Shown in pieces: positions 1,995 to 10,152 of a DNA stretch of 36,611 nucleotides. The notes under the pieces were generated by a model. It was not told where the DNA came from and searched no databases. It was given only the letters and a program-made list of their open reading frames with translations. The stretch is from the IMG/VR virus record IMGVR_UViG_2537561930_000005, one strand, 5' to 3'. The translations under genes were made by a program, and so were the position numbers. How positions within the stretch are numbered: position 1 is the stretch's first letter; the number at the start of each line of letters is the position of its first letter. The DNA is from a virus. Lineage: Duplodnaviria; Heunggongvirae; Uroviricota; Caudoviricetes.

Positions 1995-2026
1995 AAAGGC
2001 ACCGAATTAACGGTGCCTTGTTGTGT
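1995..2026 (+). terminator. Rho-independent terminator after telN
   Basis: 9-bp stem AAGGCACCG / CGGTGCCTT with loop AATTAA, followed by GTTGTGTG, 11 nt after the telN stop. Confidence 0.55.
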
Positions 2027-2155
2027 GACCTACCTCGCCTGCCCCCTGCAAAGGGCAGAAGTAACGGAGGAAACGCGGATGCAACCACAGACATCACCGC
2101 CCCGACTGCGAGGCTTCCCTTCTCTAAGAAGGGCATAAATTCGGGCTGGTCAACC

Positions 2156-2341
2156 CTATTTATTGGTGATTTCTGCTGGCTTTAGCTGCGCGGATAACTG
2201 CTCAAGTTTTTGAACTGCCAGTTCAAAATGCGCGGGTAAAGCATTGCAAATATCATTCGCCACAAACCACGGATCGCCGTTAATCATCACTACACGTACC
2301 TGATGCTCTTCCTGAAAGGAAAAGACTGCTAACGCGCTCAT
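2156..2341 (-). CDS. Small protein with Bro-N-like N-terminal motif (61 aa)
   Basis: Motif VRVVMINGDPWFVANDICNAL resembles the Bro-N/antirepressor N-terminal domain. Start overlaps the upstream gene stop (ATGA). Confidence 0.4.
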   Translation of the reverse strand: MSALAVFSFQEEHQVRVVMINGDPWFVANDICNALPAHFELAVQKLEQLSAQLKPAEITNK

Positions 2342-2571
2342 TCAGCCTCCTTACCGTGCAGCAATTGCGACGAGAGCGATGCTGAATATCCCTGTGCTTC
2401 GTGTGTTAACTCACACGCAATTTGAAGGAGTTTCCCTGCTTCTGAGAGATAAATCGACGCCTCACAGCTGGAGACTGTCCGATGGGCTGATGATACGAGC
2501 GCATAGACCTGAGCCAGACGTTCATCCAACGATTCCAGCAGGCCAACAGTGTTCATTTTTACCTGATTCAT
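2338..2571 (-). CDS. Hypothetical protein (77 aa)
   Basis: ORF translationally coupled at both ends (ATGA overlaps) within a three-gene minus-strand operon. Confidence 0.4.
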   Translation of the reverse strand: MNQVKMNTVGLLESLDERLAQVYALVSSAHRTVSSCEASIYLSEAGKLLQIACELTHEAQGYSASLSSQLLHGKEAE

Positions 2572-2732
2572 GCAGCCACCTCGCGCACCGGAATACGGGC
2601 AGACAATACCAGGACAAACCGGCTGGCGAACTGGCGACGAGCTTCCCGTTCAGATGACGCGATGGTGGAAAGATGATGGATGTGTGACTTTTTGTCTGTG
2701 CGAACGACTGCCGCAAATTTGAATTTGAACAT
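2568..2732 (-). CDS. Hypothetical small protein (54 aa, MFKFKFAAVVRTDKK...)
   Basis: Hand-translated ATG-initiated ORF not in the supplied track (<60 aa). Its TGA overlaps the ATG of the next gene. Confidence 0.3.
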   Translation of the reverse strand: MFKFKFAAVVRTDKKSHIHHLSTIASSEREARRQFASRFVLVLSARIPVREVAA

Positions 2733-3110
2733 GGTATGCACTCCGTTTAATTGGTCGTGCTACCACCAGAGTTCTCACGCTCTTGAATGGTGGTAGCCCA
2801 AGCGGGGGTGAGAATACCGGCAAACGAAGAAACCGGCCTGACCGAAGTCAGCCCCGCCTGAGCCACCATAAATCGGATATGCGCAGGTATATACACACAA
2901 AAAAACACGCTGGCGCGTGTTGTGCGCTTCGTTTATCCGGGTTCTCACGCCCGGCTGCGGAATTTGCCGCAGCGGAGTAACTTTACCGTCAAAACGACGC
3001 ACACGTCAATAATTTGCAAAGACATTTTACCCCGTGACCAGTCACGGGGACAGGTGTTTTTATAGTTTGCTTGAACGAGTGATCAGAAGTTGATCGTTAA
3101 TCAAAGGCCA

Positions 3111-3398
3111 TTACGGATTAAGAGAGTGGAAATACCTAACTAACTTACCGGCATCATCACATTTTTCTTTATCTTCTTCCTTAACATAGCCGCGACAGAA
3201 GGCTGAATAAAATTTCGCATTTTCAGAAGCAAAAGCAGCCGTCGAAAGGAGCAGTTCTTTGCATGATTCTTTTGATGCAGCATCGGGATTATTTTTACAT
3301 GCAAGCTCCGCTGATGAGTTAATAACAGAAATGCTATCTTCCTGGGCATAAACCGCAGCAGAAAAGGCAAAACATAAAACCAAAATAAAACTCTTCAC
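3111..3398 (-). CDS. Small secreted protein with four Cys (signal peptide MKSFILVLCFAFSAAVYA|QE)
   Basis: GTG start at 3398 with RBS AGGAG 5 nt upstream. Typical Sec signal peptide with AxA cleavage site; four cysteines in the mature part; low GC. Confidence 0.45.
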   Translation of the reverse strand: MKSFILVLCFAFSAAVYAQEDSISVINSSAELACKNNPDAASKESCKELLLSTAAFASENAKFYSAFCRGYVKEEDKEKCDDAGKLVRYFHSLNP

Positions 3399-3425
3399 TT
3401 TATCTCCTGTAACAGTTATCACAAC

Positions 3426-3821
3426 TCAATCAACTTTTTTAGCATCAGCCATACGCTTCAACCAGTAATCAACAATCGGCTGCTCATCCACAGAATGTTT
3501 ACCAGGTATAACTCGCCAGCTATCTTGCGAAAATCTGCCGTACTTACGCGGGAATAGGCCTTTCTTTATCTCCCGCCATGTACTAGGAAAACCATCCACA
3601 AAAGTACCAATTAACAGGAGAGGGACAAAAATCAGAGCTACAAACCATCGTGCAAGAAAGTGTTCAACAACAACATTTTCACCGTTGTAGTAATACGCAT
3701 ACGCATCCAATATGCGAATTTTCCTTACCTTAAAAATAGCCTTATGCTGAGAACGACTTAACTTGATACGAATGTATCCCTTATCCAAAGGGGATTCGTA
3801 TTTGTATGATTGAACAGCCAT
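3426..3821 (-). CDS. Membrane protein with one predicted TM helix (WFVALIFVPLLLIGTFV), 131 aa
   Basis: ATG at 3821 (MAVQSYKY...). Lies 27 nt upstream of the secreted-protein gene on the same strand; low GC. Confidence 0.45.
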   Translation of the reverse strand: MAVQSYKYESPLDKGYIRIKLSRSQHKAIFKVRKIRILDAYAYYYNGENVVVEHFLARWFVALIFVPLLLIGTFVDGFPSTWREIKKGLFPRKYGRFSQDSWRVIPGKHSVDEQPIVDYWLKRMADAKKVD

Positions 3822-3918
3822 TTTTAACCCCACTCACCATCAGCAAACAAAGCGTTATACTCTGACATTGACATCCTCCCCCACCTTCGCACTTCGTGAC
3901 TCAGGAGGGGGATTCCCA

Positions 3919-5151
3919 TTAGTGGGTGACGGCTGATTGCTCAGCGTCTGGTTCCTGCTTCAACGGGCGGTCTGACTGCACCGTCCCTCCACAGGCAAGT
4001 ACGGCGTGCCCCGCCGCTAAAATGTTGCGAGCGCCGTTTACATCGGCGTTCGCTGTATATCCACAAGCCCGACACACGAATTTACTTTGTGTCAGGCGGT
4101 TTTCTTTCGCTGTATGACCACAGCACGCGCAACGCTGGCTTGTGTACGCTGGCGGAACAGCAAGCACCTGACCACCACGCCAGAGCTGCTTATACTCAAG
4201 CTGGCGGCGCATTTCATACCAGCCCTGATCCAGTATCGAACGGTTTAAACCTGATTTTGCCCGAACATTGCGCCCCGGTTGGCTGACCGTACCCGCTGCT
4301 GACTTTGACATGTTGCTGACCTTCAAATCCTCAATGACTATCATTGCGTGGTTTTTGCTGATGATCGTTGTGACTTTATGAAGGTAGTCTCTGCGGATAT
4401 TTGCGATACGGGAATGCAGACACTGTATTTTGCGTTTCTGCTTCTGCCAGTTGTTGCTGAATTTGACCCTGCGGCTTAACTGTCGCTGAAGTCTCGCCAG
4501 CTTCTTCTGGTTTTTCTGAAAACTGTTTACAGGTTCAAAGACTGTGCCATCTGACAGCGTGGCGAGTTTAGCCACGCCAGCATCCAGACCGACTATCGTT
4601 GTGCTTGTGTGATTTGGTTCTGCCGTTTCAACTTCAACCTGAAACGAGATATACCACTGTCCCGCTAACTGACTGATTGTCGCATTTTTGATTTTACCGT
4701 TCACACGTTGAGATTGCCGGAATTTTACCCACCCAAGACCTGACGGTAGCTTCACTCTGCGATTTTCAAGGCAGCAATATTTCTCAAAGTTCACAAAACG
4801 GATTGAGTCTCTTCCCTCATTTTTTCGTTTCCATACCGGAGCCTTAGCTGCGAGCTTTTTATCAAAACAACGTTTCCATGCGGTATGCAGGTCTTTCAGC
4901 TTTTGTTGCAGATTGTCGGTATAAGCATGCTGTAAGAAGATGTATTCCGGCATTTTTTTCCACACTGTAATCATCCGGTTCAACTCGAAAGCCGAAGGTA
5001 ACTTTTCGCCTGAGCCAAGTATGCGCTTTGTCTCCGCAAGACCTAAATTCCAGACAAAACGGGCGCAACCACATAACTGCCGCAAACGCTGCGACTGTTC
5101 ATGCGTTGGTTCCAGTCTGAATTTGTAGGCTTTCAGGATTAGCATCATCAT
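3919..5151 (-). CDS. tnpB: TnpB (OrfB) RNA-guided nuclease, 410 aa
   Basis: C-terminal zinc-finger CxxC...CxxC (CACCGH...CRACGY) and RuvC-like region typical of IS605 OrfB; adjacent to tnpA. Confidence 0.8.
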
Positions 5152-5203
5152 TCAGTGTGTAGTAGATTTTCTTGCAATATTACTGTTTTTACGGCCAACC
5201 TCA

Positions 5204-5608
5204 ATGCAAAAATACAAAATCAATCGTTCAAGACATGCTGCCTTCCTTTTGCATGTTCATCTTGTCTTTGTAACAAAATACCGTCGAAAGATACTGGGAG
5301 AGTTACACTGTGCAGCATTCCATCAGTATGCAGCAGAAGTCTGCCGTGATTTTGGGGCAGAACTTAAAGAAAGTAACGGAGACGTCGATCATGTCCACAT
5401 GCTGATCGAATACCCACCAACAGTGCAGCTTTCGGTACTGGTTAACTCACTGAAAGCAGTGACATCCCGCCGTCTGCGAAACGAATTTCTTGATTTGCGG
5501 GGGGCATACGGAAAAGCCGTGCTCTGGTCGAGGTCATACTTTGCTGGCTCCTGCGGAGGTGCGCCGCTGGAAGTTGTGAAGCAATATATTCAACATCAGC
5601 GAGGCTGA
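5204..5608 (+). CDS. tnpA: IS200-type Y1 (HUH) transposase TnpA, 134 aa
   Basis: HUH motif (HVHMLIEYPP) and conserved IS200 TnpA length and architecture. Confidence 0.85.
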   Translation: MQKYKINRSRHAAFLLHVHLVFVTKYRRKILGELHCAAFHQYAAEVCRDFGAELKESNGDVDHVHMLIEYPPTVQLSVLVNSLKAVTSRRLRNEFLDLRGAYGKAVLWSRSYFAGSCGGAPLEVVKQYIQHQRG

Positions 5609-5680
5609 GCACCCTTCGGGCTTTTCAAGCCCGTCCAAATTCCCCTCCCGCCTTATGTCGGCGGGAGTACCCTTTGGAAG

Positions 5681-5968
5681 TTAAGATGGTAGACGGTTGC
5701 CCTCGATGTAGAGATTCAGTTCATACTTCGTCTCCGGGTTTTCCTTGTCGGCTCGTTCCCAACGCTCAGCAGCCTCACGCGCCAATAATTCCACTGCTTT
5801 CAGATAATCCTCCGTACGGAACCAGCCAAAGATAAGGCCACGATCTGTTACAGCCCAGGCAACCTTTTTTTCTTCCTCCTGGATAGCCTTAATGCGTCGA
5901 TCGCATTCATCCCGGCAAAACTGCAGCTGACGGTAATCAAGTTTGTCCAAAAATGCAGTAGTAGACAT
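5681..5968 (-). CDS. Hypothetical protein (95 aa) downstream of repA
   Basis: ORF on the repA strand; no recognised domain. Confidence 0.35.
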   Translation of the reverse strand: MSTTAFLDKLDYRQLQFCRDECDRRIKAIQEEEKKVAWAVTDRGLIFGWFRTEDYLKAVELLAREAAERWERADKENPETKYELNLYIEGNRLPS

Positions 5969-5972
5969 ATTT

Positions 5973-6164
5973 TTACTCCCCGTTCACCGAAAAATCACGA
6001 TAGAAACGTTTCCACATACGATAAGTCTGCGCGAGTTGTTCACCACGAAACATCGCCTTCCTGGCCTTCATGTTTTCCTTGTGAGACTTTCGATCTATGA
6101 ACCAAAACCATTGCTGGAACACACAAAGCAAGAGACACAAAGATAATATCCACTGATTACCCAT
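5973..6164 (-). CDS. Small membrane protein (63 aa, MGNQWILSLCLLLCVFQQWFWFI...)
   Basis: ATG at 6164 lies 2 nt upstream of the repA TAA stop (ATGGGTAA), suggesting translational coupling. One clear hydrophobic helix. Confidence 0.3.
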   Translation of the reverse strand: MGNQWILSLCLLLCVFQQWFWFIDRKSHKENMKARKAMFRGEQLAQTYRMWKRFYRDFSVNGE

Positions 6165-9100
6165 AGAAAGCGCCCTGCTCTTCGTAGCTGCATGGGCTAT
6201 TCCCGGTAATGTATTCACGTAACCGCCGCAGTTCATTGCTGGATAAGTGATCCATGAACTCTGTGAGGTACAGAGATGCAAACGTCATAGCTATGCTGGC
6301 TGATGACCATGATGACATAGTGGCCAGCTCCTCACCGGAAAGCGCACTCATCGCCCAGGACTCAGGTACAACCACTGGCAACACAGCCAAAGCCTCAGAA
6401 ATTACTGAATGAGGGGCGTTTTGAACCTGCTCGTTTGTGGATCGCGTTTTATCATCCATATATATATTGAGATCCAAATCGCGATCCATTTCGATGGCGG
6501 TCTTCTCGGCTTTACGCGTTTTCAGGGTTAGGCCATCTTTCTGACGCTGAGCAAGAATATCCAGCATAAATGCCGCTGATTCAGGCTCAACAAAACGCAA
6601 GGTTGGACGCTTATCGCCGTCTCTGCCGCGACGTTTACCTGTTTTAAGGCCAAGAGAGTCGCAAATGTTTTTAAACAACGCTTCCGGCACTTTAGGCTTC
6701 CCTTTTGGCGTCATAAAACCACCAATGTGCAGAACGTTATTCAACAGGTCACGGCGTTCGGCTGTCATGAGGTTATCTCGAGCAAATTTGAGACGCTCCT
6801 GAGTCGCCTCGCCGGTCATAGTCTCAGGGTTGATACCGCAGTCGATAAAGTACTGCCGGAGAGTTGCTGATTTAAGCGCATAGAAACCGCGCGCCCCGAC
6901 TTCAACAGTAGGAGTAGCTTTTACCTTGTGATCGATTATTCCAGGGAATTTAGTTTTAAAGACATCATCAGCCTGCTCGCGAGTCATCGCGGTCACTACA
7001 AAATATTGCCACTGTCCCGCCTGACGGTATGCGTAGGTAAAATTGATGGCTGCTTCTTCCCGGTCGTAACGACGAGCTGTTACCTCATCTAAAAGCATTG
7101 TTTCATAGCGGCGAACTTTGTCTCGAGCACCATCGAAATAGAATTTCAGCGTGCCTTCTTCAACCGGTAGTTTCAGTTCGTTTTCAATATCCCAGCGGAC
7201 AAGTTTTGCCTGTTCTTCAAGCGTCAGCGCGCGTTTTTTTAGCAGTTCTTCACGCTCTGATTCTTGTGGAGTTTCTGTATTGAGATGCAGATCCAGTGTC
7301 TGTTCCCACACAATATCCCGCGCTTCTTTACGCAGCTCTTTACCGATATCATTCGCAGCATAATCGGTGGCCAGCGGCGATACCTTATAACCGTCGCTGT
7401 GCATGATGCAGATCATGTTGCTGGCGTAGTCGTTACGCGCAGTCGCTTCAATAGCGGCTGCTTTAATTTTCATCCTGGTAAAGTCGGTATTGGCCACCCC
7501 CATTGATATACGGTCGCCATCGAAAACGACATCCGTCAGTTCACCGTTCATACCTGCGGTAGCAAGCAATGCCTGGGCGAATGCTCGTTCTATTTTTTGC
7601 GGGTCAGTTTCACGTTTTGCACGAGCTTTATCAAAGCCGATAATAAATTCTTTTGCTGTACGGTCGCGGCGTAGCATTTGCACTGCGTCGCTGGGTACAA
7701 CTTCACCACAGAACATGCCGAAATGACGGTCAAAATGTTTTTGCTCAATCGACACGCCGGATGAAATAGACGGGCTATAAATCAGGCCGTCGTATTTTTT
7801 GACCATCTTTTTCGGTTGATTGGTAAATGCTTCAACTTCTGGCTCTGGTTTGTTTTTCTGGTTTACACACAGAAATTTCTTACCAGGAAAATGCATTCTC
7901 AGGGTGGCTGTCACATCTTCTGCAAAGGTGGAGCTGTCGGTGGCCAACATGATTTTTTCGCCATCCGATACAGCTTTCACCACCTCGGTCATGATGCGAT
8001 CTTTTTCTGTATAAAAAACCCGGATTGGCTCACCTGTTTCGCGGTTGCGAACATCAACAGGTAATTCAATTACGTGGATCTGCAGCCATGCCGGTAAACC
8101 TAGTTCTTCACGGCGTTTCATAGCCAGTTCAGCCAGGTCAACCAGCAGATCATTCGCATCAGCATCCACCATGATTGGGTGTTGTTCTGTTCTGGCCAGC
8201 GCGTCAATTAGCGTATTGAATACAGCCACCGGGTTTTCCATAGCCCGACCGGAAAGAACGGCACGTAGCCCTTGTGTGGCCTCGTCAAAGCCAAAATAGT
8301 CGTGCTGGCGCATCAACGGTTGCCAGCAGTTTTTAACAATCGAGTTTATGCAGATGGTCAGTTTACTGGCGTATGGAGCCATTTCCTGATAGCCAGGATC
8401 CTGATAGTGCAGGATATCGGCTTTTACACCTTTTCCTTCTGTCATCATTTCCCACAGGCCGCCAATAAGGGAGACACGGTGAGCAACAGAGATACCACGT
8501 TCTGAGCTATGCATTAACGGTCGTAACAATCCAGTAGATTTGCCGGAACCCATACCAGCACGGACGATGACTATCCCCTGTAGTGATTGCACGTACTTCA
8601 GGACATCATCGGTCATTACCGAAGTTTCAAAACGCTTATAGGTGATATGTTGAGGGCGTTTATTGGGATCAGTTATGCGTTCGCTGAAAGAGCGCGGAGC
8701 CTGGGCAATACGGCACTTTTTATTCAGGCGACGGGCAATGTGGTCTTTTACCGTAGCGCGATAGATATTTTCCAGTCCCATTTCACGCAGAACGATGCAG
8801 AACATGTTAAATAAATCTGACGGACTGTTAGGAACCGGACAGGTTAGCATGCCAATATCCACCGCTCTCAGCAGCTCTTTGGCAAAAGTACGACGGTTAT
8901 CCCGCTTAATTGTCTTCAGGCGGTTGAGCGTCAGAGATAGCAAATCAGTACCAGTTTTCAGGCGGTTTGCTGTTGCAAATAGTTGACGTGCTGTTTCACG
9001 AAGTCCACGTAGTTTGTGCAGGTCGTTGAAGTCACTGCACTCCATTTGCGGATCGTCTTCAAAAGTTGGATAGACGCAGCGGACATCGTTGAATTTCGAT

Positions 9101-10152
9101 AAGATTTCATAGCCAGTCCGCAGGCCGGTATTCCCTTTTCCTTCTGTGGCAGATTTCCGGTCATTATCCAGTGCGCAGGTGATTTTTGCCGCCGGGTACA
9201 TGTTTACCAGTTGTTCCACAACATGAACCATGTTGTTAGCGGATACAGCGACAACCACAGCGTCAAAGCGTTTATCTTTTTTCGTGGCAAGCCAGATGGA
9301 TGCACCAGTAGCAAAACCTTCTGTAACAGCGATGTTTTGCGCCCCTTTCAGCTCACCGATAACAAAGCAGGCACCGACGAAATCGCCGCTGGTTACTGCG
9401 CTGGTCTGGTATTTTCCACCTTGTTTGTCGATTCGCTGCCAACCCACAATACGACCATCGTAACGACCGTCCAGGTGAGCCAGAGGGATAGCCATATACG
9501 TGGTTGGCCCCCTGCTCCATTTTGCGCTGTCGTGACTGGTCACGCGACGCACATCACACGAATTAAAAACGTCACGAATACCTTTTTTAATCGCATATGG
9601 CCATGAGCCGTCTTCTGCAGGAGCATGTTCCCACGCGCTGTGAAATGCCAGCCATCCCAGCAAACGTTCATGGTCAATTTGGTTGTTTTTCAGGTCATTA
9701 ATTCGTTTTTGTTCTTCACGGCGACGACGTGCTTCGGCCTGACGTTCTATTCTTGCCCGTTCTTCTTCCGGTTGTGCGACCACGGTCGCATTATTCCGTT
9801 GTTGCTCACGGCGATATTCAGAAAACAGGAAGGAGAAACCGCTCCATGAGCCAGCATCGCTGCCTTTATGGACGAAGTTAATGAACGGGTAATCAATCCC
9901 TTTGCTGTGTTCCAGCCGGGAGTAAATTTCTACGCGTCCTTTGAGGCTCTTCTCGAGAGCTTCTGGAGATGTTTTATTGTATGAAGAGTAACGCTCAACA
10001 CCCCCGCGAGGGTTGAGTTGGATGTTGTCGGAACAGGCAGGCCAGTTGATACCAGCCATCTGTGCCAGCTCGGTTAGTTCATCCCGTGCTGCTTCAATTA
10101 GCGAGAACGGATCGCTGCCAAAGCGATCCGCATAGAAATCGTTTAATGTCAT
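6157..10152 (-). CDS. repA: Replication protein RepA, primase-helicase fusion, 1331 aa
   Basis: Giant ORF with Walker A (GMGSGKST) helicase region and N-terminal primase-like region. Size and position (divergent from telN, adjacent to cB) match N15 repA, which I recall is ~1324 aa. Confidence 0.8.
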   Translation of the reverse strand: MTLNDFYADRFGSDPFSLIEAARDELTELAQMAGINWPACSDNIQLNPRGGVERYSSYNKTSPEALEKSLKGRVEIYSRLEHSKGIDYPFINFVHKGSDAGSWSGFSFLFSEYRREQQRNNATVVAQPEEERARIERQAEARRRREEQKRINDLKNNQIDHERLLGWLAFHSAWEHAPAEDGSWPYAIKKGIRDVFNSCDVRRVTSHDSAKWSRGPTTYMAIPLAHLDGRYDGRIVGWQRIDKQGGKYQTSAVTSGDFVGACFVIGELKGAQNIAVTEGFATGASIWLATKKDKRFDAVVVAVSANNMVHVVEQLVNMYPAAKITCALDNDRKSATEGKGNTGLRTGYEILSKFNDVRCVYPTFEDDPQMECSDFNDLHKLRGLRETARQLFATANRLKTGTDLLSLTLNRLKTIKRDNRRTFAKELLRAVDIGMLTCPVPNSPSDLFNMFCIVLREMGLENIYRATVKDHIARRLNKKCRIAQAPRSFSERITDPNKRPQHITYKRFETSVMTDDVLKYVQSLQGIVIVRAGMGSGKSTGLLRPLMHSSERGISVAHRVSLIGGLWEMMTEGKGVKADILHYQDPGYQEMAPYASKLTICINSIVKNCWQPLMRQHDYFGFDEATQGLRAVLSGRAMENPVAVFNTLIDALARTEQHPIMVDADANDLLVDLAELAMKRREELGLPAWLQIHVIELPVDVRNRETGEPIRVFYTEKDRIMTEVVKAVSDGEKIMLATDSSTFAEDVTATLRMHFPGKKFLCVNQKNKPEPEVEAFTNQPKKMVKKYDGLIYSPSISSGVSIEQKHFDRHFGMFCGEVVPSDAVQMLRRDRTAKEFIIGFDKARAKRETDPQKIERAFAQALLATAGMNGELTDVVFDGDRISMGVANTDFTRMKIKAAAIEATARNDYASNMICIMHSDGYKVSPLATDYAANDIGKELRKEARDIVWEQTLDLHLNTETPQESEREELLKKRALTLEEQAKLVRWDIENELKLPVEEGTLKFYFDGARDKVRRYETMLLDEVTARRYDREEAAINFTYAYRQAGQWQYFVVTAMTREQADDVFKTKFPGIIDHKVKATPTVEVGARGFYALKSATLRQYFIDCGINPETMTGEATQERLKFARDNLMTAERRDLLNNVLHIGGFMTPKGKPKVPEALFKNICDSLGLKTGKRRGRDGDKRPTLRFVEPESAAFMLDILAQRQKDGLTLKTRKAEKTAIEMDRDLDLNIYMDDKTRSTNEQVQNAPHSVISEALAVLPVVVPESWAMSALSGEELATMSSWSSASIAMTFASLYLTEFMDHLSSNELRRLREYITGNSPCSYEEQGAFYG
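6436..6490. other. Candidate internal replication origin element within the 3' part of repA
   Basis: Inverted repeat GGATCGCG (6439-6446) / CGCGATCC (6480-6487) flanking an AT-rich spacer containing TATATATAT; three GATC sites within ~50 bp. Confidence 0.3.
9775..9790. other. sopC-like partition (centromere) site copy 1, TGCGACCACGGTCGCA, inside repA
   Basis: 16-bp element with 7-bp inverted arms around AC. Exact 16-mer is repeated at 12218 and 16512. Differs at 2 positions from the F SopB-binding core TGGGACCACGGTCCCA as I recall it. Confidence 0.6.

Follow-up and report, generated by a model that had tools for sequence, protein, structure and literature searches.

A probably recent insertion of an ISSen6/'ISEc89'-type IS200/IS605 element, with a predicted ωRNA-guided TnpB, in an N15-like plasmid-prophage

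Introduction

The TnpB proteins of insertion sequences (IS) can process their own mRNA into an ωRNA, and TnpB can favour the retention and homing of the IS that encodes it. The closest described systems for the element studied here are IS608 (ISHp608) of Helicobacter pylori and ISDra2 of Deinococcus radiodurans. In IS608, left cleavage lies 19 nt 5' of the left subterminal hairpin (IPL), the right cleavage site TCAA is 10 nt from the right subterminal hairpin (IPR), the right guide tetranucleotide (GR) is GAAT, and AAAG reads the target TTAC (PMC3201880; PMC5934647). The mechanisms of TnpA (IS608, ISDra2) and of TnpB with its ωRNA, for which ISDra2 is the paradigm (PMC8612924; PMC10097598), are established knowledge. 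Here we analyse a stretch of 36,611 nucleotides of virus DNA (IMG/VR virus record IMGVR_UViG_2537561930_000005), called the window throughout, which is an N15-like linear plasmid-prophage. Positions 3868 to 5685 of the window are very probably an intact, recently inserted IS of the IS200/IS605 family, IS605 group, with divergent tnpA and tnpB genes, of the ISSen6/'ISEc89' type, and with a TnpB predicted to be ωRNA-guided. Its mobility, the expression and processing of its RNA, its transposon-associated motif (TAM) and cleavage are things that we infer.

The element shares with IS608 a Y1 HUH TnpA, subterminal hairpins, an identical right cleavage site (CR, TCAA) and GR (GAAT), the spacing of the cuts from the hairpins (10 nt on the 3' side of IPR, 18-19 nt on the 5' side of IPL), and a left guide tetranucleotide (GL) that lies 5' of the foot of IPL and pairs with the target. 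It differs from IS608 in its target, CCAT read by GGTA in the same way as AAAG reads TTAC, in its gene order, since the IS608 genes are co-directional and overlapping whereas those described here are divergent, and in its proteins, which have low identity with those of IS608. With the TnpB-ωRNA of ISDra2 (8h1j, 8exa, 8bf8) it has in common the domain order, the RuvC D-E-D triad, the zinc finger and, as predicted here, a structured RNA over the tnpB 3' end that stops at the right end beside a guide derived from the flank; it differs in its predicted TAM, CCAT instead of TTGAT, and in a scaffold sequence that is unrelated at the level of Rfam and BLAST.

Results

The limits of the element are given by an IS-free relative. 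Among the phages of the collection, Escherichia phage PhiR46_1 (L001) is the most closely related, with 97.9% identity over 83% of the first 12 kb of the window, and the 15% absent from PhiR46_1 in that comparison is the IS itself. BLAST of window positions 2901-6400 against PhiR46_1 yields two collinear blocks that abut in the phage, as 2901-3867 matches L001 up to 3842 and 5686-6400 matches it from 3843. Window positions 3867 and 5686 are thus neighbouring bases in PhiR46_1, and the insertion is exactly 3868..5685, 1818 bp. No base was gained or lost at the junction and there is no target-site duplication. On the window minus strand, which is the top (active) strand of the IS and the sense strand of tnpB, the occupied site reads ...CGTCTACCAT/CTTAACTTCC...GGGGGAGGATGTCAA/TGTCAGAGTATAACGC and the empty site ...CGTCTACCAT/TGTCAGAGTATAACGC, slashes marking the junctions. 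The IS ends, CTTAAC... and ...GTCAA, form no terminal inverted repeats. An earlier reading of the window made from the letters alone (the sequence-only reading) had placed an element of this family at 3840-5675 and had proposed alignment with an uninterrupted relative as a check: the element stands and the alignment gives a precise empty site, while the limits shift, because 3840-3867 is 28 nt of phage flank and the left end is 10 nt longer. That the element interrupts the telN-repA backbone is likewise borne out by the PhiR46_1 empty site, the exact spot being the 3' end of a small phage open reading frame (ORF) downstream of repA. An IS at this phage site was present in no record of the three collections searched, and the absence of the insertion from these records and from a 97.9%-identical phage argues for recent transposition.

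The same alignment bears on the two ORFs beyond the right end, 3111-3422 and 3426-3821, which had been described as a cargo cassette next to the element. That the IS is a composite or cargo unit that brought them into the phage is scarcely conceivable: adjacency speaks for it, but both ORFs stand at the same position in the IS-free PhiR46_1 (L001 3086-3796) and the IS ends at 3868. They are therefore ordinary phage backbone and not cargo.

The geometry of both IS ends agrees with that of IS608, all features being on the minus strand. The left end (LE, 5610..5685) contains GL GGTA (5668-5671), IPL (5645-5667), a perfect 8-bp hairpin CTCCCGCC-N7-GGCGGGAG, and a second hairpin (5618-5632); folded as DNA, this region gives -21.1 kcal/mol (z -4.3). 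At the other end GR GAAT (3912-3915) lies 5' of IPR (3878..3911), an imperfect hairpin (CCCCCTCC...GGTGGGGG) whose stem contains a single T.T mismatch, identified by its folding and by compensatory changes. IPL and IPR are on the same strand and have related stems, and IPR doubles as the last stem of the RNA scaffold described below. CR TCAA is the final 4 nt of the IS (3868..3871); it is placed by the empty-site junction, the cut lies 10 nt downstream of the foot of IPR, and the terminal GTCAA is present in 55 of 55 relatives. The left cleavage point is 18 nt 5' of the IPL foot. The target, or left cleavage site (CL), 5'-CCAT-3', lies in the flank, outside the IS (5686..5689), and is also the predicted TnpB TAM. 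Judged by sequence, GGTA and CCAT are complementary position by position, with Watson-Crick pairs throughout, and GAAT pairs with TCAA exactly as in IS608.

The target motif is constant, as CCAT stands directly 5' of the left end at 18 of the 18 independent sites examined, namely the window, 8 distinct sites among loci L004-L015 and 9 distinct sites in Photorhabdus, Klebsiella and Pantoea relatives. The left-end 26-mer, used to scan metagenomes, yielded no more than 9 loci, which were informative on the target motif and not on diversity. All the Escherichia coli BLAST matches listed (25/25) run at least 4 bases past the left end, and a compensatory change from G-C to A-T is found in IPL of a Pantoea copy (L023). 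The subterminal hairpins that the sequence-only reading saw at 5620-5670 thus correspond to two structures, 5645-5667 and 5618-5632, and neither end lacks an intact hairpin.

The two genes are complete. tnpA (5204..5608, plus strand) encodes a Y1 (HUH) transposase of 134 amino acids (PF01797, E 6.6e-38; NF033573, 139 bits) that aligns end to end with IS608 TnpA (2a6m, E 1.2e-18); H63 and H65 of the HUH motif and the catalytic Y128 are kept and aligned with the corresponding IS608 residues, and Q132 is aligned with a conserved Gln of IS608 TnpA. tnpB (3919..5151, minus strand) encodes a predicted RNA-guided RuvC nuclease of 410 amino acids (408 from the third Met) with helix-turn-helix, OrfB_IS605 and Cas12f1-like TNB domains (PF12323, PF01385, PF07282). 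It scores 355 bits against NCBIfam guided_TnpB (NF040570; cut-off 100) and aligns with ISDra2 TnpB (8h1j, 8exa) at E 2.5e-42, with the RuvC triad D190/E274/D370 and the CxxC pairs C341/C344 and C360/C363 intact. The genes are divergent and separated by a spacer of 52 nt. These findings agree with the complete Y1 transposase gene, the 410-amino-acid RuvC-like TnpB with zinc finger and the divergent arrangement proposed beforehand, and the RuvC residues are undisrupted.

Intact genes could still belong to a dead relic, a copy that looks whole and is no longer mobile or nuclease-active. Most tnpB-bearing elements of the IS609 type in E. coli are decayed, and IS609 of K-12 has a tnpA pseudogene. 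Here, on the contrary, each ORF has its full length and every catalytic residue, both ends are complete, and near-identical copies are present at many different CCAT sites, which makes a relic improbable, and we regard the copy as intact.

The sequence-only reading also expected an ωRNA at the tnpB 3' end. As Rfam gave no matching family (see below), conservation was examined directly. The relatives listed by a protein homologue search all had 90% identity or more, too close to show covariation. A degenerate-pattern scan of one genome per species gave 75 loci whose TnpB relatives have 34-86% identity; they belong to Enterobacterales, Thiothrix, Hahellaceae, Burkholderiales, Acidobacteriota, cyanobacterial-type metagenome-assembled genomes (MAGs) and others. 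In 55 non-identical elements the last ~160-185 nt align well, up to a common ...GA(T/C/G)GTCAA end. In the window the predicted ωRNA scaffold is ~160 nt long (3868..4026, minus strand), overlaps the last 108 nt of tnpB and reaches the last base of the IS.

Six nested helices were proposed on this alignment (A2); window coordinates (minus strand) are given for those helices with which the window sequence is in register. The first, a closing helix (AACAU/GAUGU), pairs 4020-4024 with 3871-3875, near the 3' end. Stem A (4001-4017) lies within Ala-Ala-Gly-His-Ala codons, and a CCUG/CAGG helix (3990-3994 with 3952-3956) encloses stem B (3963-3985). The fifth is a hairpin across the stop codon in the majority lineage (A2 columns 167-177 with 194-203), and the sixth is the terminal hairpin, which coincides with IPR. 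In the 12 sequences of the window lineage, the hairpin that follows GGAACC has another arrangement and the terminal hairpin is extended, with two further compensatory pairs; positions 3928-3948 can form a local pairing there (GACG...CGUC) or pair with the UGUC at the 3' terminus, and the 12-sequence alignment fits both. A RAGATH-18 match at 3952-3995 (minus strand), over the stem B/CAGG region, is probably due to chance, with 28 bits for a gathering score of 44.9 and E 0.03. A 5' stem at 4029-4053, seen in the single-sequence minimum free energy fold, proved on inspection not to be conserved among distant relatives, and the model omits it.

The covariation is strong. Standard pairs occupy 92.1% of the 2175 cells of A2, compared with 38-52% when the partners are slid by 1-3 columns, although the percentage of paired cells is inflated since the structure was chosen after inspection of these same sequences. 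Both-sided changes, which together with the slid controls are less sensitive to such a choice, occur in 25 of the 41 pairs (7-12 in the controls); the covariation score is 0.309 (0.04-0.08 when slid), and none of 500 shuffles reaches any of the observed measures. In stem A the third positions of the Ala and His codons switch jointly (A-U in 34 sequences, G-C in 20, non-pairing in 1); the two paired states are both found in each sub-lineage, and the changes are synonymous. In Hahellaceae the CCUG/CAGG helix has exchanged a C-G for a G-C pair. The minimum free energy of the scaffold as a single sequence has a z of -3.85 relative to shuffles.

A covariance model (R1) was built from the other lineages, with the lineage of the window excluded (36 sequences, 41 pairs). 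Searched against the 36.6-kb window, R1 gave one match, full length, at 3868-4040 (minus strand), with 122.6 bits and an E-value of ~4e-34, and the end of this match is the last base of the IS. The covariance-model search suggested by the sequence-only reading therefore gives a single locus. Its expectation of an ωRNA at the tnpB 3' end is supported by the covariation and the R1 match; its placement at about 3800-3950 is not, as the scaffold spans ~3868-4026 and the flank to be added is 3848-3867.

Several observations weigh against an ωRNA. Rfam cmscan of positions 2000-7000 (E up to 1) found no ωRNA-type family at threshold. Much of the R1 score comes from sequence that also codes for protein. 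The terminal helix is also a TnpA-binding DNA hairpin, and its covariation cannot separate the two roles. A scan of 3700-5800 found no sigma-70-like promoter on the tnpB strand, in a scan whose overall counts are at shuffle level and which is thus uninformative. One could accordingly propose that the structure at the tnpB 3' end is just the right-end DNA hairpin used by TnpA together with protein-coding conservation, the terminal helix coinciding with IPR and the positions from 3919 to 4026 being coding. We consider this very unlikely. Four more helices are located 60-150 nt into tnpB, further in than the ~50-70 nt that make up the IS608 ends, and these internal helices, which exceed what TnpA-end recognition requires in IS608, argue for a role as RNA. 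They show both-sided changes that include paired synonymous third positions, a G-C swap is seen in Hahellaceae, and pairing falls to 38-52% with slid partners. Taken as a whole, these results support a conserved structured RNA over the tnpB 3' end whose limit is the right end, which is what an ωRNA would show.

Distant TnpB relatives at 46-54% identity retain this 3' RNA scaffold and the terminal ...GGAGGATGTCAA, with at least 5 copies per genome, in a Hahellaceae MAG (L049-L051, L064, L066) and in Thiothrix fructosivorans and a Pseudomonadota MAG (L058, L061-L063, L067, L068). The predicted ωRNA lineage reaches far beyond Enterobacterales and is without a match in Rfam 15.

As to its name, the element was compared with two described elements. 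ISSen6 was originally found in Salmonella enterica. An IS605c element of E. coli, 'ISEc89', is entered in Table S1 of PMC9956272 with ISSen6 as its ISfinder homologue, a length of 1821-1883 bp, a TnpB of 409-410 amino acids, a TnpA of 146 amino acids, CCAT at the left end and TCAA at the right end. The window IS matches this entry, with 1818 bp (1822 with CCAT), a TnpB of 410 amino acids, CCAT/TCAA and the IS605c layout with divergent genes. All tabulated features agree except the length of TnpA, and on this ground we file the element as of the ISSen6/'ISEc89' type. The length of TnpA, 134 amino acids here and 146 in the table, tells against the assignment, and the name ISSen6 is taken from the tabulated features. 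The frequencies are alike, ~1.5% of complete E. coli genomes, as the published count is 37 of 2467 genomes (PMC9956272), and we find full-length copies with 98-99.8% identity in 88 of 5426, mostly on plasmids and at many different sites. Copies at 99.7-99.8% identity are found in E. coli at numerous positions of both plasmids and chromosomes. A Salmonella copy (L091) has ~91.6% identity overall and 90-100% across most of the element.

The E. coli and window version differs from the Salmonella one in a ~400-bp IS609-like tract in tnpB. In a three-way alignment, element positions ~1067-1467 (window ~4219-4619) share 94-98% identity with IS609 and only 74-83% with the Salmonella ISSen6-type copy, and outside this tract the pattern is reversed. 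This reversal indicates that the E. coli lineage has an IS609-derived conversion tract inside tnpB, and the alignment suggests that two IS605-group elements resident in the same host underwent gene conversion. Beginning just upstream of the D190 codon and stopping short of E274, the tract would replace part of the RuvC region.

The resemblance to IS609 raises the question of whether the element is simply a copy of that common resident tnpB element of E. coli (insPQ). The two elements share the IS605c layout and the 5' half of the RNA scaffold. In favour of identity with IS609, the PGAP label of the protein is 'InsQ/TnpB family', and a tract of 647 bp in the C-terminal half of tnpB has 95% identity. 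However, this tract (window 3950-4596) and the terminal GGAGGATGTCAA (last 12 nt) are all that the window IS and K-12 IS609 (annotated at 1503161-1504908 of MG1655) have in common. Outside the tract identity is 27-59%; DNA comparison shows no relationship in the left ends, in tnpA or in the N-terminal half of tnpB; the right-end hairpin loop is different; TnpB is 67% identical overall to InsQ; and the target is CCAT and not TTAT, the IS609 cleavage sites being TTAT/TCAA (Table S1 of PMC9956272). IS609 is thus a separate element, its name was rejected, and a copy of IS609 is extremely unlikely, leaving the ISSen6/'ISEc89' type as our assignment.

Copies of the window type occur in other settings. 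The reference genome of the filamentous phage If1 (L092; U02303.1 / NC_001954.1) carries a full copy of 1827 bp at ~5307-7138, after a CCAT in the intergenic region of If1; the sole annotation of its tnpB is 'ORF348; homologous to eryA gene product'. Photorhabdus (temperata, khanii, cinerea and tasmaniensis; L016-L022, L040, L047, L071, L078, L079) has several window-type copies per genome, with TnpB at 81-86% identity and at different CCAT sites, which suggests a recent expansion of the window-type element.

Discussion

This element is of an already known, ordinary IS type, and both of its proteins are of known mechanism. By analogy with IS608, TnpA would bind IPL and IPR on the top strand and move the IS as single-stranded DNA by peel-and-paste. 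It would find its cleavage sites by base-pairing, CCAT with GGTA on the left and TCAA with GAAT on the right, excise the top strand as a circle and paste it 3' of a CCAT in single-stranded DNA without duplication. By analogy with ISDra2, the tnpB transcript would run past the right end into the flank and comprise the scaffold (3868-4026) and a guide starting TGTCAGAGTATAACGC (3867 downward), and the TnpB-ωRNA complex would cut DNA in which CCAT is followed by a match to the guide, i.e. CCAT-TGTCAGAG.... As tnpB is oriented like the repA operon, phage read-through could, speculatively, feed this RNA.

The putative guide flank, 5'-TGTCAGAGTATAACGCTTTG-3' (3848..3867, minus strand), is placed by position only, following the TnpB paradigm, and is unique within the window. 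In the IS-free PhiR46_1, CCAT is followed by a 20/20 nt match to the guide, and YDC107_1 has no such match. Since the combination of CCAT and guide match exists only where the IS is absent, as in sibling N15-like phages, cutting would favour retention or homing of the IS. As the predicted guide and CCAT match the IS-free sibling allele perfectly, a lysogen could cut incoming or co-resident IS-free relatives. The TnpB-ωRNA of an IS in a temperate plasmid-phage might in this way act as a phage-borne gene drive or exclusion device, a tentative idea that we hold to be rather unlikely; if it were true, IS-free relatives would be excluded, or converted to IS carriers by recombinational repair. The idea of a drive from phage to phage follows directly from the known TnpB homing model, and we know of no demonstration of it among phages. 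With its perfect match to the IS-free siblings, the predicted guide would offer a simple natural system for studying TnpB-mediated homing or exclusion from one phage to another.

For annotation, this work provides the exact ends, the target and predicted TAM, the guide position and the RNA scaffold for an IS that pipelines label 'InsQ/TnpB family', and the covarying alignment of 55 elements could seed an RNA family for the predicted ωRNA lineage absent from Rfam 15. It also identifies the neighbouring ORFs as phage genes and one phage ORF as shortened. This ORF (5681-5968, minus strand), downstream of repA, has had its final 14 codons removed by the IS: it has 95 amino acids here and 108 in PhiR46_1 (coding sequence 3799-4125 of L001), as seen by comparing translations. 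ORFs 3426-3821 and 3111-3422, the latter with a PhiR46_1 counterpart annotated 'Spackle', lie further downstream on the same strand and are now split by the IS from the upstream operon, which may have a polar effect.

Elsewhere in the window, the protelomerase gene (83-1984) encodes four TelK/ResT domains, and the primase/RepA gene (6157-10152) encodes 1331 amino acids. Positions 2786-2986 (minus strand) have Rfam matches above the gathering score to C4 antisense RNA (82 bits), isrK (68 bits) and the c4-a1b1 target (49 bits); they identify an immI antirepressor control cassette of the P1/P7/N15 type (C4 antisense-RNA immunity), and it stands upstream of small minus-strand ORFs at 2156-2741.

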